In this document: piece after piece, positions 3,438-10,780 of the stretch
How the letters are laid out: the number at the start of each line of letters is the position of its first letter
Position numbering within the stretch: the first letter of the stretch is position 1
Source of the DNA: Candidatus Limnocylindria bacterium
GTDB lineage: Bacteria; Chloroflexota; Limnocylindria; QHBO01
DNA length: 64,000 nucleotides
Direction: 5' to 3'
Assembly (NCBI GenBank): GCA_036004845.1
Contig: DASYRA010000001.1
Coordinates: 282 to 64,281, forward strand
Program-made: the position numbers and the translations under genes
Notes under the pieces: generated by a model
Told to the model about the DNA's origin: nothing
Databases searched by the model: none
Seen by the model: the letters and a program-made list of their open reading frames with translations, nothing else

Positions 3438-7778
<4,341 letters not shown>

Positions 7779-7784
7779 TCCGGG

Positions 7785-7812
7785 GGGCGCCTGGCGAGCT
7801 CGTCGGGCGCCC
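7785..7812 (+). terminator. GC hairpin just after rpoC stop (GGGCGCC-N14-GGCGCCC), no U-tract
   Basis: Arms 7785-7791 and 7806-7812 are complementary. The 3' arm coincides with the left target-site duplication of the island. Confidence 0.3.
7805..7812. repeat. Left copy of putative 8-bp target-site duplication GGGCGCCC
   Basis: Identical 8-mer at 10773-10780, immediately outside the two terminal inverted repeats. The 8-mer is itself palindromic. Confidence 0.6.
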
Positions 7813-7834
7813 GGTAGTGTCTCAGTTTGAGCGT
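7813..7834. repeat. Left terminal inverted repeat GGTAGTGTCTCAGTTTGAGCGT
   Basis: Exact reverse complement of 10751-10772. Confidence 0.9.
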
Positions 7835-7877
7835 CGGAATGCTTGACCCCCTCCCGCTCGGGCCTCATGCTTGAGGG

Positions 7878-8114
7878 GTGAAGAAACGCAAGATGCCACG
7901 CGATCCGAACCAGCTCGCCAAGATGATCGTAGACATGACGCTGCATGAGGACGAGCCGGAATCTCCCGAGCGGGTTAAGGACCCGGCGTCGGTGGAGCTG
8001 GGTCGTCAGGGCGGTCTCATTGGTGGACCCAGGCGGGCAGCGAAGCTCAGTCCTGAACGCCGGAGCGAGATCGCGCGGAAGGCAGCGGCTGCTCGATGGG
8101 GCAAGCAGGCGTAA
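7878..8114 (+). CDS. Small basic hypothetical protein (78 aa; cargo)
   Basis: ORF inside the island. Start is GTG 7878 or ATG 7893. C-terminal motif GGLIGGPRRAAKLSPERRSEIARKAAAARW. Family not recognised. Confidence 0.5.
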   Translation: MKKRKMPRDPNQLAKMIVDMTLHEDEPESPERVKDPASVELGRQGGLIGGPRRAAKLSPERRSEIARKAAAARWGKQA

Positions 8115-8144
8115 TCTTACTGGCCGCAAGTTTACGGATTCCGC

Positions 8145-8173
8145 TTGACACTCTCTACGCCCGGCCGTAGACT
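8145..8173 (+). promoter_or_regulatory. Sigma70-like promoter TTGACA-N17-TAGACT upstream of the 243-aa ORF
   Basis: -35 TTGACA at 8145-8150 and -10 TAGACT at 8168-8173. Followed by hairpin ACTCCTG...CAGGAGT, then AGGAG (8192-8196) 7 nt before ATG 8204. Confidence 0.4.
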
Positions 8174-8203
8174 CCTGTTCCCTTCGCTAGCAGGAGTTCG
8201 GCC

Positions 8204-8935
8204 ATGGCACCCACATATCGCTATCCGACCTACAACCTCGAATCCGCACTCGATGTAGCCCGACGCATCAACGATCGTGGAGCGGATGCCGTTCTATCAG
8301 CAGACGAACTTGCCGCTGTCCTCGGGTACAGCTCCAAGAACAATGGGGCCTTTCTCAGTCGCCTCGCAGCCGCTCGGCTTTTCGGTTTCCTGGAGGGACA
8401 GGCTGGCGCACTAACTGCGAGCGACCGCGCCGTAACGATCTTGCAGCCCGACTATCCCGAGAATGCAGATCGCGCGCGTCTGGCGGCTTTCAAGGGGGTA
8501 CCGCTGTTCGGCGCGTTCCTTGACGCATTTGGCGGGCGAGAGCTTTCTGATGATGCCGGGATGAAGAATGCGCTGATAACGCGATTCAAGATCCCTGCCA
8601 AAGAGGCTGGACCCATCCTGGCCCGCCTCATGGAATCTGCGGAACAGGCCGGTCTTTTCCGCGTCGCCGGAAACCGCACGCGGATGATTGAACCGACGAT
8701 CCGAGGCGGCACTCCTGCGCACACTAACGGGACAGGAGCCGAGCCCCCAAGCTCCCCACCGAAGGAAGAGCCGAAGCAGCTCGTGCAGGGCCTCCCCAAG
8801 ACAATCACGGGCGCGCTGGAATTGCTACCCGCTGGGCGAGAGTGGCAAGAGGATGAATACGCGGAGTGGCTGGCCTTCTTCGACATGGCCTGCCGTGTCT
8901 ACTACAAGCTCCCCCGAACAAAGGAGGCTGGATAG
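8204..8935 (+). CDS. Hypothetical protein, 243 aa, possible N-terminal winged-helix (cargo)
   Basis: ATG with AGGAG Shine-Dalgarno and balanced composition. N-terminus LSADELAAVLGYSSKNNGAFLSRLAAARLFGFLEG looks wHTH-like. Pro/Glu/Lys-rich linker, then an acidic/aromatic C-terminus. No family recognised. Confidence 0.7.
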   Translation: MAPTYRYPTYNLESALDVARRINDRGADAVLSADELAAVLGYSSKNNGAFLSRLAAARLFGFLEGQAGALTASDRAVTILQPDYPENADRARLAAFKGVPLFGAFLDAFGGRELSDDAGMKNALITRFKIPAKEAGPILARLMESAEQAGLFRVAGNRTRMIEPTIRGGTPAHTNGTGAEPPSSPPKEEPKQLVQGLPKTITGALELLPAGREWQEDEYAEWLAFFDMACRVYYKLPRTKEAG

Positions 8936-8937
8936 CG

Positions 8938-8985
8938 GGAACGGGCGGCCACGTTCGCTAGCAGGCTAACAAGGCCGCCCGTTCC
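8938..8985 (+). terminator. 13-bp-stem hairpin after the 243-aa ORF (GGAACGGGCGGCC ... GGCCGCCCGTTCC)
   Basis: Perfectly complementary arms at 8938-8950 and 8973-8985 with a 22-nt loop. No U-tract, so a terminator role is uncertain. Confidence 0.3.
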
Positions 8986-8992
8986 ACCGGAT

Positions 8993-9064
8993 GGGCCGCG
9001 CAGGTTCGCCACCAGAGGACTCTAGACCCGATGGTGACGGGTTCAACTCCCGTGCGGTCCACCA
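8993..9064 (+). ncRNA. tRNA-like / tmRNA-TLD-like element with alanine identity features (non-canonical, 72 nt)
   Basis: Acceptor stem GGGCCGC/GCGGTCC with G3-U70 wobble. Discriminator A and encoded CCA. T arm ACGGG-TTCAACT-CCCGT. No canonical D arm or anticodon stem could be folded. Confidence 0.35.
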
Positions 9065-9182
9065 CGCTCAAGCATCTTACAGCGGAGCACAAGGCTGAGT
9101 CTTGGCCCAATGGTCCCACCACCCGCGATCTCCTCAAGCATCGCGACAGACTGCTGTCACACTCCTCAAGCATTCTGTTCAC

Positions 9183-10019
9183 ATGAACAGGCTGAGCAGG
9201 ACCGAACGAGCGAAGATCATCCGTCTGCTGGTCGAAGGCAACAGCCTCCGTTCCGCGACCCGGATCACTGGCCGCTCCATCAACACGATCTCGAAGCTGC
9301 TGGTGAATCTCGGAGCGGCATGCGAGAAGTACCAGGACGAGCACCTGCGCGACCTGAGCAGTTCACGGATCGAGTGTGACGAGATATGGGCGTTCTGCCG
9401 AGCCAAGGCCCGCAACGTGCCCGACGAGCATCGGGGCGAGCCGGGCTGGGGTGACATCTGGACGTGGGTTGCCCACGATCCCGATACGAAGCTCGTCTCG
9501 ACTTGGCTGGTCGGGGACCGGGATGCGGAGTCAGCCAACGCATTCCTCGCAGACCTCGCCTCCCGGCTCCGCAACCGGGTACAGCTCACCACAGACGGCT
9601 ACCGCCCATACCTCGATGCAGTCGAGCGGGCATTCGGTCGGGACGTGGACTTCGCGCAGTTGGTGAAGTTCTACGGTACCGATCCGGCTGAGGACCGCAA
9701 GTTCAGCCCGCCGGTCGTCCTCTCCGAGGAGGTCCGCATCATTCAGGGCCAGCCGGACCCAGAGCGGATCAGCACGTCGGGCGTCGAGCGCCAGAACCTT
9801 ACGATGCGGATGGGGATGCGCCGCTTCACCCGTCTCACCAACGGCTTCTCAAAGAAGGCCGAGAATCACGCGGCAGCGATCAGCCTGCACTACATGTACG
9901 TCAACTTCGCGCGGCCCCACAAGAGCCTCGCCAACCCGTACCCCCGGACCCCAGCAATGGCGGCAGGGATCAGCGACCATATCTGGACCTGCGAGGAGAT
10001 CGCGAACCTGATCGACTGA
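9183..10019 (+). CDS. IS1-family transposase (single ORF, 278 aa)
   Basis: N-terminal HTH (RTERAKIIRLLVEGNSLRSATRITGRSINTISKLL). DDE-type blocks CDEIWAF, TTDGYRPY, VERQNLTMRMGMRRFTRLTNGFSKK parallel IS1 InsB (TDGWPLY, ERHNLNLRQ..SFSKS). ATG 9183 preferred over the track's TTG 9102. Confidence 0.9.
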   Translation: MNRLSRTERAKIIRLLVEGNSLRSATRITGRSINTISKLLVNLGAACEKYQDEHLRDLSSSRIECDEIWAFCRAKARNVPDEHRGEPGWGDIWTWVAHDPDTKLVSTWLVGDRDAESANAFLADLASRLRNRVQLTTDGYRPYLDAVERAFGRDVDFAQLVKFYGTDPAEDRKFSPPVVLSEEVRIIQGQPDPERISTSGVERQNLTMRMGMRRFTRLTNGFSKKAENHAAAISLHYMYVNFARPHKSLANPYPRTPAMAAGISDHIWTCEEIANLID

Positions 10020-10067
10020 CGTACAATGCTTGAGAGCGAGGCAACTATCGTCAAAGGAGGCAGGCTC

Positions 10068-10238
10068 GTGACTCAGGTTTCCCCTTGGCACTCCAAGCGC
10101 GTGACCGATCGCAACGTCTACCACGACAACAACAAGTGCACCGAAGGCAACAACATCGAGTCCTGGAATCGCGAGTCAGGTACCGACGGGCGTCCTAAGT
10201 GTGAGCATTGCGCTGACCTCGACGCGAAGGGCCAGTAG
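10068..10238 (+). CDS. Small Cys-containing (putative zinc-ribbon) protein, 56 aa (cargo)
   Basis: AAGGAGG (10054-10060) 7 nt before GTG 10068. Motifs VYHDNNKCTEGNNIE and GRPKCEHC. The track ORF starts earlier, at 10026. Confidence 0.55.
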   Translation: MTQVSPWHSKRVTDRNVYHDNNKCTEGNNIESWNRESGTDGRPKCEHCADLDAKGQ

Positions 10239-10530
10239 GAACGAACACCAGATCCCACCACGGCCCTGTCAACTCGCCGTCGTCCATTCGCCACACGCGG
10301 CGTAGTTGGTAAACGGGTAGGCCGTTCTGCAACGCTACGCCGAGGGCGACAATACCCTCGGCGTAGCTGCCTCTGAATCGCACGGTCGGCTCGGAGAACG
10401 CGTGGCCCTCGCCACCCTCGCACGATTCATACGTCGCAACTCCTGCCTTTTGGAGTATCACCACGGCTCGGGCTATCCCGGCATCTAGCTCCACATTGGC
10501 ACCATAGGAACAGGAGACTGAGTCATGCAT
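10195..10530 (-). CDS. Hypothetical protein, 111 aa (cargo)
   Basis: Protein-like composition with mixed A/T-ending codons (MHDSVSCSYGANVELDAGIARAVVILQKAGVATYESCEGGEGHAF...). Its 3' end overlaps the convergent ORF 10068-10238 by 44 nt. No clear SD. Confidence 0.45.
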   Translation of the reverse strand: MHDSVSCSYGANVELDAGIARAVVILQKAGVATYESCEGGEGHAFSEPTVRFRGSYAEGIVALGVALQNGLPVYQLRRVWRMDDGELTGPWWDLVFVPTGPSRRGQRNAHT

Positions 10531-10719
10531 GAATGGAAGTTCCCAGGCGTTTCAGGATTCCCCCCCGCTGATCCCGGCCCCATCATGGCGGAGATAGTGG
10601 TGGTGGCCGTTTGCAAGAAGTGCGGCACGATCCGCACCCAAAGCGTTCTAGGCACGAGCGGGGTCGGCCAAATCGATCTCAGCGGCAACTGCGACCTGCC
10701 AGCGCCCCTCGTCGGCTAA
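10525..10719 (+). CDS. Possible small ORF (64 aa, contains CKKCG); may be spurious
   Basis: The only open frame between the 111-aa ORF and the right IR. Its start overlaps the divergent ATG of 10195-10530. No SD seen. Confidence 0.2.
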   Translation: MHEWKFPGVSGFPPADPGPIMAEIVVVAVCKKCGTIRTQSVLGTSGVGQIDLSGNCDLPAPLVG

Positions 10720-10750
10720 GGCCGCTATCAATACCTGAAGCCCGTAATCC

Positions 10751-10772
10751 ACGCTCAAACTGAGACACTACC
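10751..10772. repeat. Right terminal inverted repeat ACGCTCAAACTGAGACACTACC
   Basis: Exact reverse complement of 7813-7834. Confidence 0.9.
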
Positions 10773-10780
10773 GGGCGCCC
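10773..10780. repeat. Right copy of putative 8-bp target-site duplication GGGCGCCC
   Basis: Identical to 7805-7812. Confidence 0.6.

Follow-up and report, generated by a model that had tools for sequence, protein, structure and literature searches.

The IS1-family element and its tRNA-like module

The window analyzed here, a 64,000-nt stretch of contig DASYRA010000001.1 from a Candidatus Limnocylindria bacterium, contains the rpoB, rpoC, rpsL, rpsG, fusA and tuf genes together with ribosomal protein genes, and a stretch of lower G+C content between rpoC and rpsL holds a mobile element. This stretch is bounded by perfect 30-nt inverted repeats at positions 7805-7834 and 10751-10780, whose outer 8 bp, the palindrome GGGCGCCC, are read best as an 8-bp target duplication. 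The element itself, a 2,960-bp IS1-family transposon inserted between rpoC and rpsL, spans positions 7813-10772 and contains a transposase gene in a single open reading frame (ORF), the small ORF78, a passenger gene for a 243-aa protein (ORF243) and some further small ORFs. The subject of this study, a tRNA-like module at positions 8993-9064, has the same orientation as ORF243 and the transposase gene, between which it lies, and starts 7 nt after a hairpin at positions 8938-8985. The letters of the module, as read in an earlier note on this DNA, were confirmed base for base, and its placement there within a mobile element is borne out by the inverted repeats on both sides.

The 5' strand of the acceptor stem (G1 G2 G3 C4 C5 G6 C7, positions 8993-8999, forward strand) pairs with the 3' strand GCGGTCC (9054-9060, U70 at 9056), giving G1-C72, G2-C71, the wobble pair G3·U70 and four Watson-Crick pairs, as had been proposed. 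The 3' part (9054-9064) continues with A73 at 9061 and an encoded CCA at 9062-9064. The T arm (9037-9053), also recognized earlier, consists of the 5-bp stem ACGGG/CCCGT and the T loop TTCAACT. The acceptor and T parts of a canonical tRNA, namely a 7-bp acceptor stem, a 5-bp T stem and a 7-nt T loop, are all present. The D stem-loop is absent: no D stem can be drawn in 8993-9064, in agreement with the earlier note, and only a 10-nt connector, GCAGGTTCGC (9000-9009), stands in its place, the GG of which at 9003-9004 is presumed to be the equivalent of G18/G19. The claim that an anticodon stem is missing as well does not hold, as a long, irregular central arm with an anticodon-type loop occupies positions 9010-9036. 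Its outer helix, which had been overlooked, pairs CACCA (9010-9014) with TGGTG (9032-9036) and continues via tandem G·A pairs and two G-C pairs (GG/CC) to the 7-nt loop CTCTAGA (9020-9026), which reads CUCUAGA in the RNA and has CUA (CTA at 9022-9024) as its triplet.

A competing fold with a 3-bp D stem (GGU/ACC), derived from an alignment to tRNA-Sec, was rejected, as it leaves TGGTG unpaired, whereas CACCA/TGGTG covaries. The triplet was also compared by eye with the upstream hairpin loop, the stop codon, the target duplication and the transposon ends in the window element and in related loci, which are numbered with the prefix L (L015, L017, L008 and L016), and no consistent complementarity was found. 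The 10-mer CCACGCTCAA at the CCA end of the module does recur at the inner edge of the right inverted repeat, as pointed out previously, but in direct rather than inverted orientation and at chance level; by our estimate, about 4 such 10-mer coincidences are expected per 3 kb, and the repeat was therefore treated as chance.

Comparative evidence for a conserved RNA gene

Standard models, run as the earlier note had suggested, are silent on the module. ARAGORN found no tRNA or transfer-messenger RNA (tmRNA) anywhere in the 64-kb window, and Rfam gave no match for the module at gathering score; in E-value mode the best match was tRNA-Sec at 18 bits (E 0.93), with other weak matches to mascRNA (RF01684; 14.9 bits, E 5) and mir-702. 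The single sequence folds mildly better than its shuffles (z -1.9), and a bare 7-bp plus 5-bp descriptor matches dozens of sites in the GC-rich window. Because the site alone is inseparable from chance, the decision between chance and a real gene was based on cross-genome comparison. A BLAST search with the module against annotated plasmids returned short chance matches only. An exact 29-mer of the window element had no match among the representative genomes scanned, indicating that the exact element is not in that collection; it is present, however, in the JGI samples 3300036852, 3300036860 and 3300036861.

Homologous loci were fetched via ORF243 and via the transposase. The related elements share a common layout, in which the left inverted repeat is followed by ORF78, a variable passenger, a tRNA-like gene, approximately 100 nt with a sigma-70 promoter, and the transposase gene. 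A module of the same design lies at the same place in L008, L015, L016, L017, L019, L056, L064 and L122 and after ORF243-like genes in L006 and L039, and it is inside inverted repeats in L017, L056 and L064. As MAFFT shifted the 5' ends in an alignment of seven modules, a covariance model was seeded from three well-aligned members and the rest were aligned by Infernal. In the alignment of 10 protein-anchored homologues, which like any covariance-model alignment is fitted to its model, 98.8% of the cells pair, compared with 42-51% when the partners are slid, and both sides change at 12 of the 17 pairs and, within the CACCA/TGGTG helix, at all five. Pair 3:70 is G·U in nine of the 10, and pairs 4-7 show two to four types each. 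Moreover, C56 and A58 of the T loop are kept even in divergent protein-anchored members.

A second covariance model, R2, was built solely from sequences found by pattern searches in other genomes (described below), with the window module left out. It scored the window module at 82.2 bits with a rough E-value of 5e-14, the best match in 586 kb of protein-anchored loci. The second-best site in the window reached 20.6 bits (model R1).

A widespread family with an invariant alanine signature

The connector GCAGGTTCGC, identical in six of the eleven protein-anchored modules, was used as the anchor of two pattern scans. The pattern of the first, which also fixed G1-G3 and UCCA, was run against one-genome-per-species bacterial and archaeal assemblies and returned 84 loci, about 2 of which are estimated to be chance matches. 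Among 80 parsed loci, 72 have a perfect 7-bp acceptor stem and a T stem with at least four of five pairs. In the 67 distinct members found in this way, 97% of the cells are paired, 14 of 17 pairs have changed on both sides, and acceptor pairs 4-7 occur in 3 to 6 pair types each; the T loop reads TTCRA throughout, but this was forced by the search pattern. ARAGORN recognizes three of the 72 pattern-found members, with wrong ends, and the Rfam tRNA model reaches its threshold for one of 18 family members tested.

The pattern of the second scan left positions 1-3, 70 and 73 free. It returned 120 distinct sequences, of which approximately 43 lack acceptor pairing and represent background, while 77 are well formed. 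In the well-formed sequences, pair 3:70 is G·U in 77/77, pair 2:71 is G-C in 77/77, pair 1:72 is G-C in 75/77, and A73 is present in 75/77. The full set expected of a substrate of alanyl-tRNA synthetase (AlaRS), namely G3·U70, A73, G2-C71 and G1-C72, is therefore found in the family. A change of U to C at position 70 would strengthen the pair, yet it was never seen, although the neighbouring pairs covary freely, suggesting that selection acts on the 3:70 wobble itself and, by established identity rules, that the RNA is recognized by AlaRS. The rules for AlaRS and RNase P used here are carried over from model bacteria.

Most family sequences come from metagenome-assembled genomes (MAGs). Members are distributed over at least ten phyla and occur in Chloroflexota, Actinomycetota, Alpha-, Beta-, Gamma- and Deltaproteobacteria, Acidobacteriota, Planctomycetota, Verrucomicrobiota, Gemmatimonadota, Bacteroidota and Patescibacteria, including the isolates Mycolicibacterium elephantis DSM 44368 (L156), Mesorhizobium sp. 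YM1C-6-2 (L134), Methylocystis sp. B8 (L177), Brevundimonas poindexterae (L195) and Tepidamorphus sp. 3E244 (L145). In addition, nine well-formed members are present in IMG/VR contigs classified as viral, among them L256, L257, L260-L263, L265 and L266. Sequence comparison identifies the window segment as genuine and conserved, one of a widespread family of reduced tRNA-like genes. A literature search, outside the range of which lay most subscription journals, turned up nothing that describes the family, DUF5343, or tRNA-like genes carried by IS1 or IS1595 elements, and this family of alanine-type mini tRNA-like genes is apparently undescribed.

Two readings of the module had been offered earlier. 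According to the first, it is the collapsed remnant of an ssrA or tRNA-Ala gene of the host that was acquired at an earlier integration site; a chance fold may be considered together with it. The alanine acceptor signature is indeed common to tRNA-Ala and tmRNA, and the standard finders reject the sequence. However, both acceptor strands are present, and the carrier, which has inverted repeats and a target duplication, is a DDE transposon rather than an integrase island: no integrase was found in the element, and inverted repeats enclose the module in at least seven independent elements. Compensatory conservation is maintained where the neighbouring protein is 45-60% identical, and across phyla, and the E-value of 5e-14 obtained with R2 points the same way. 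A relic or chance fold is contradicted by these comparative data and is practically excluded. The second reading, in which the module is cargo in the form of a minimal, functional tRNA-like domain, has strong support from the compensatory conservation in diverged transposons and from the invariance of G3·U70 in at least 77 sequences. With rather better than even confidence, we favour the view that the module is a working gene whose product is a tRNA-shaped RNA without a D arm, that an IS1-family transposon carries it as cargo, and that it is one of a large mobile family. Its RNA would most likely be excised like a tRNA and charged by AlaRS.

Cargo of several transposon families

Transposases of several families were found next to the module. 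Among the 72 pattern-found loci, 18 have an IS1-like transposase within 1.5 kb, mostly just downstream and on the same strand; an IS1595 (ISXO2-like) transposase is encoded near the module in 16, and an IS5-like SWIM + DDE_Tnp_1 transposase in three; ORF243-like or DUF5343 winged-helix proteins are encoded near others. These carrier protein families were confirmed by Pfam. In the IS1595 elements L129, L180 and L187, the module lies inside terminal inverted repeats of 15-25 nt together with unrelated passengers, and at least seven independent elements in total have it within their inverted repeats. The variety of carriers and the unrelated passengers show that the module is cargo of several transposon families and is not tied to one passenger.

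In the IS1-like subgroup (window element at 7813-10772; L049-L128), the cargo slot has a fixed position in the layout. Its passengers include ORF243-like winged-helix, DUF5343, HTH_3 + Peptidase_M78 and HARE-HTH proteins, and L063 and L081 have none. By ARAGORN, 11 of the 95 transposase loci contain a same-strand cloverleaf tRNA-like gene, which ends 81-115 nt before the transposase start in 10 loci and 282 nt before it in one. These sister cloverleafs include forms with a GCCCCCG acceptor and the anticodon ACU or GCU without a long variable arm, forms with UUC, and type-II forms with UAG or CUA, the CUA form being labelled 'tRNA-Pyl' by ARAGORN. Odd cloverleafs of this sort are found in L110 (252-337 of the upstream segment), L117, L115, L070, L080, L101, L047, L025, L075 and L091. 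A tRNA-like gene of approximately 113 nt in L073 (~2830-2945) combines a D arm, the anticodon loop CUUUUAA and an insertion of about 45 nt before the T arm with G3·U70 and A73, and may represent an intermediate between the cloverleaf and reduced forms. The slot holds several kinds of tRNA-derived genes, of which the type in the window is the reduced, alanine-specific one.

Close relatives by transposase (L050-L054, L059 and L062) are without a tRNA-like gene and instead have a conserved non-coding stretch of approximately 250 nt with several hairpins, located about 330 nt upstream of the transposase start, between a DUF5343 passenger and the transposase promoter; it may be another structured RNA. 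Four modules stand head to tail beside other odd tRNA calls (L166 at 4745-4992, module-oriented; L191; L196; L207), among them a 74-nt 'tRNA-Ser(GGA)' and an 84-nt 'tRNA-Gly(UCC)'. These arrays recall the irregular-tRNA polycistrons of soil metatranscriptomes (PMC5389517).

Ends of the module and its probable processing from a passenger transcript

Measured to position 73, family members are 67-72 nt long, and the window module has about 69 nt before its CCA. The base at position -1 is U in 49 of 79 members, compared with approximately 20% at other upstream positions. At the 3' boundary, C74 is present in 69, C75 in 52, A76 in 37 and the full CCA in 29 of the 79, so that conservation drops directly after the discriminator, as it does with tRNA genes that are given their CCA post-transcriptionally. 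The 80 nt upstream of G1 have a mean folding energy of -30.3 kcal/mol, compared with -22.4 kcal/mol in control windows, and in nearly all of 74 cases the upstream structure ends 0-11 nt before G1, leaving no room for a separate promoter. In the window, a predicted sigma-70-like promoter before ORF243 (TTGACA-17-TAGACT, 8145-8173, forward strand) is the sole good promoter upstream of the module, and no terminator-like site lies between the two. Under the favoured reading, the module would be co-transcribed with ORF243 from this promoter, through the hairpin at 8938-8985. RNase P would then cleave at G1, so that the hairpin forms the end of the upstream mRNA, and the 3' end of the module RNA would be trimmed to A73 with the CCA kept or added, as the signatures at both ends suggest.

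The same features would be expected if charging were irrelevant and the tRNA shape served as an RNase P and 3'-end processing site only. The passenger mRNA would then gain a hairpin-protected 3' end and read-through would be uncoupled from the transposase, as in mitochondrial punctuation or the MALAT1/mascRNA system. In keeping with this, the hairpin stands directly upstream in nearly all members without promoter room between it and G1, one upstream promoter is predicted in the window, the transposase of relatives has its own promoter downstream of the module, and U at -1 and C74 fit RNase P recognition. Related IS1 elements, moreover, carry quite different tRNA-like genes in the slot, suggesting that any tRNA shape suffices. 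Recognition by RNase P is nevertheless established to need neither G3·U70 nor A73, yet the G·U pair is kept in 77/77 sequences beside changing pairs, while U-to-C at position 70 would be neutral or stabilising for a mere processing signal. The conserved length of the central arm and the fixed U33 and A38 of its loop are also left unexplained. Processing without charging, the main rival of the favoured reading, is considered unlikely as the whole function.

The MALAT1/MEN-beta mascRNA offers a parallel in that an mRNA-like 3' end is protected by a stabilising structure and directly followed by a tRNA-like fold. The two are separated by RNase P, which would presumably make the same cut at the module. 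Unlike the module, mascRNA is eukaryotic, and the two RNAs have no sequence homology; mascRNA is not known to be aminoacylated.

Comparison with known tRNAs and tmRNA

The module shares with tRNA-Ala all acceptor-end determinants, the 7-bp acceptor stem, the 5-bp T stem, C56 and A58. It differs from tRNA-Ala in lacking a D stem, in its longer and irregular central arm, in a loop triplet that is near-random across the family rather than NGC (CUA in the window) and in its location on transposons instead of rRNA or tRNA operons.

Like tmRNA (RF00023, RF01849-51 and RF02544), the module combines an alanine identity set with a stemless D-loop analogue, and in both a long helix joins the T arm without a variable loop. 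It could accordingly be seen as a miniature tmRNA with a truncated helix 2 that works with SmpB in untagged rescue of stalled ribosomes, comparable to the reduced tmRNA of jakobid mitochondria. G3·U70, A73 and CCA are common to both RNAs, neither has a D stem, and the long helix abuts the T arm in the same way. The likeness of the GG-containing connector GCAGGTTCGC to GGAUUCGAC, the D-loop analogue of tmRNA, was pointed out in the earlier note and is no more than a resemblance. However, the mRNA-like domain is absent: only 27 nt lie between connector and T arm, and this arm contains no resume codon, tag reading frame or pseudoknot. Its helix closes after approximately 10 layers with an anticodon-type loop, which tmRNA does not have because SmpB fills that place. 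The ARAGORN tmRNA search was negative, and no Rfam model of the tmRNA clan rose above the 18-bit tRNA-Sec match. In addition, the module is multicopy and mobile, whereas tmRNA is encoded by a single housekeeping gene, and the host presumably has its own ssrA. A miniature tmRNA is thus very improbable.

In allo-tRNAs, the acceptor and T stems are of the 8/4 or 9/3 type, and both a D arm and a long variable arm are present (Mukai et al. 2017, NAR; PMC5389517). These and other irregular soil tRNAs resemble the module in being non-canonical, in some cases with G3:U70, and in having anticodons unrelated to their identity; they also occur in soil bacteria near toxin-antitoxin or transposon-related genes, and those with G3:U70 insert alanine in E. 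coli (PMC5389517). The module family does not belong among them, as it has a 7/5 configuration, no D arm, no variable region and a strictly invariant alanine set. In the D-arm-less tRNA-Ser of animal mitochondria, a short connector replaces the D arm and the anticodon helix is extended, so that the overall length is kept (PMC7609411). The module likewise has a short connector and an extended arm, but mitochondrial tRNA-Ser(AGY/UCU) differs in its serine identity, fixed anticodon and weak T arm, whereas the module is bacterial and has a canonical T arm and elbow. By analogy, the module would work most like the acceptor/T half of tRNA-Ala joined to a D-arm-less body of the animal-mitochondrial kind, and its genomic habit recalls the irregular tRNAs found near transposable elements and toxin-antitoxin genes (Mukai et al., PMC5389517).

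Probable charging with alanine and possible decoding

Three covarying helices, an invariant alanine set, the signatures at -1 and at the 73/74 boundary, the upstream hairpin and the position inside transposons characterize the module and its family. With these features, the RNA would adopt an L shape consisting of a 12-bp acceptor/T helix, an elbow between GG and the T loop, and a central arm of approximately 10 layers. The helices of this model are seen in the covariation, and the tertiary fold is a prediction from them; the GG of the connector is invariant and likely partners the T loop. The RNA would then be charged with alanine by AlaRS through G1-C72, G2-C71, G3·U70 and A73, as the invariance of this set and the established AlaRS identity rules suggest.

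The central arm of family members has 7-9 predicted pairs plus non-canonical layers and mostly ends in a 7-nt or 9-nt terminal loop. In 36 loops, which were defined by free-energy folding alone, Y32 is found in 34, U33 in 34 and A38 in 35, while positions 34-36 approach maximal entropy (1.85-1.97 bits) and position 37 is A in 18, C in 13 and G in 5. Compared with a canonical anticodon arm, the loop has the right size and the fixed U33 and A38, but the stem is irregular. Across 70 sequences, 37 different triplets occur, CUA and UUA included. A fixed identity, U33, A38 and arm length combined with a free triplet would be expected of an adaptor family that changes its codon specificity. As only the three middle bases of the loop are free while U33 and A38 are fixed, our leading guess, a tentative one, is that the alanyl-RNA works at the ribosome, where it reads a copy-specific codon and inserts alanine, which would make the window module an amber suppressor reading UAG. 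Precedent comes from non-canonical G3:U70 tRNAs with foreign anticodons, which insert alanine in E. coli (PMC5389517). The broader picture of mobile D-arm-less mini-tRNAs that are always alanine-charged, have a free anticodon and recode a different codon or stop in each copy (UAG here) is possible but rather doubtful.

Several points weigh against such decoding and, in part, against the favoured reading as a whole. The missing D stem is one of them, as EF-Tu and the ribosome are not known to accept any bacterial tRNA without a D arm. Irregularities of the central arm (G·A, A·C and bulges) are another, and 13 of the 36 loops have C at position 37, where real tRNAs nearly always have a purine. 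Near-random triplets, stop anticodons included, would likely lead to harmful misreading if decoding were efficient. Sister elements hold odd cloverleafs with non-alanine acceptor stems in the same slot, and the role of the slot for the transposon may need only a tRNA shape and not alanine. The large samples, finally, cover the GCAGGTTCGC subfamily only.

The alanyl-RNA, or the binding of AlaRS to the RNA, could also serve a purpose away from the ribosome, for example as the toxic or regulatory half of an addiction or defence system under the control of the winged-helix passenger, as a decoy for tRNA-targeting nucleases or as an alanine donor for a transferase. An invariant identity set would be maintained in this case too, and C37 in 36% of the loops speaks against decoding. 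The module often adjoins winged-helix passengers of the ORF243-like or DUF5343 type, and irregular tRNAs of soil metagenomes are reported near toxin-antitoxin systems and transposable elements, some of them toxic or charged yet unused in translation (PMC5389517). On the other hand, no transferase or nuclease gene is consistently linked to the module, the passengers differ among elements, ORF243 is without an enzyme-like fold, and three free loop bases between a fixed U33 and A38 are unexplained. A charged RNA with no decoding role is therefore regarded as decidedly unlikely.

If the favoured reading, a functional gene for a D-arm-less tRNA-shaped RNA charged with alanine, is correct, a gene class invisible to standard tRNA finders exists in isolates and MAGs of at least ten phyla. 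It would be a new, alanine-type and D-arm-less variant of the non-canonical tRNA-like genes already known from mobile DNA. A strict AlaRS set beside a free loop triplet is an unusually clean signal of selection; either bacterial translation accepts a smaller minimal architecture, or mobile elements use alanyl-RNA outside the ribosome in a new way. The family defines a conserved cargo slot and makes an RNase P-dependent ending of passenger transcripts likely. It may also offer compact, naturally diversified alanine-accepting scaffolds for synthetic biology. Should the decoding guess prove true, the family would provide a natural mobile toolkit for deliberate misreading or suppression and the first demonstrated case of a tRNA without a D arm that functions in bacterial translation.

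Other features of the element and its surroundings

The transposon has the features of the IS1 family, namely a DDE_Tnp_IS1 transposase, terminal inverted repeats starting with GGT and an 8-bp target duplication. It is unlike other IS1 elements in that its transposase is a single ORF without a frameshift and its layout of ORF78, variable passenger, tRNA or tRNA-like gene, and transposase is fixed. The left terminal inverted repeat (7813-7834, forward strand), GGTAGTGTCTCAGTTTGAGCGT, is 100% complementary to the right one (10751-10772, reverse strand), and the same end sequence is found in L017 and L056. The target-site duplication GGGCGCCC occupies 7805-7812 on the left and 10773-10780 on the right. 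Relatives end in the same GGTAGTGTCTCAGTTTGA and are flanked by different 8-bp duplications, such as GCTCGACC at the equivalent place in L056.

The transposase (9183-10019, forward strand, 278 aa) matches Pfam DDE_Tnp_IS1 at 32 bits, above the cut-off, and NCBIfam transpos_IS1 at 60.7 bits, below the cut-off, and has 576 relatives in genomes. ORF78 (7893-8114, forward strand), a small conserved protein of this transposase subgroup, is without a Pfam match; tblastn located it ahead of the transposase gene in the majority of 80 related loci. ORF243 (8204-8935, forward strand) has 50 homologues of 39-62% identity, nearly all metagenomic, and no Pfam or NCBIfam family was found for it. Its AlphaFold2 model has a mean predicted local distance difference test (pLDDT) score of 88 and contains winged-helix domains, its Foldseek matches are to winged-helix proteins only and weak, and its N-terminus is faintly similar to the DUF5343 passengers. 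With no family, weak winged-helix matches only and passengers that differ among elements, ORF243 was rejected as a partner enzyme of the module.

The stable hairpin at 8938-8985 (forward strand) directly follows the ORF243 stop codon and has the 12-mer TTCGCTAGCAGG in its loop (8954-8965). The same 12-mer occurs in the 5' leader of ORF243 (8183-8194), within a small hairpin that covers the ribosome-binding site of this gene, and the loop motif (C/T)TAGCAGGAG is common to homologous elements (L008, L015 and L016). The winged-helix passenger may bind at this motif, or the motif may take part in regulatory pairing. The motif CTCAAGCAT or its complement ATGCTTGAG occurs six times in the element (7840-7848, 7867-7875, 9066-9075, 9132-9141, 9164-9173 and 10027-10035). 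In relatives it forms part of a near-consensus promoter, ATGCTTGACA-N17-CATAAT, before the transposase gene, and it may be a transposase or repressor site overlapping promoters.

Between the transposase gene and the right repeat lie small ORFs at 10068-10238, 10198-10530 (reverse strand) and 10525-10719, for which no family match was found. The first encodes a Cys-rich YHDNNKC...CEHC motif, and homologues of the first two are present in a few related elements. Outside the transposon, rpoC (3438-7778) encodes an RpoC of 1,446 aa with a long alanine/glutamate-rich helical insertion, placed by eye at approximately residues 140-330.

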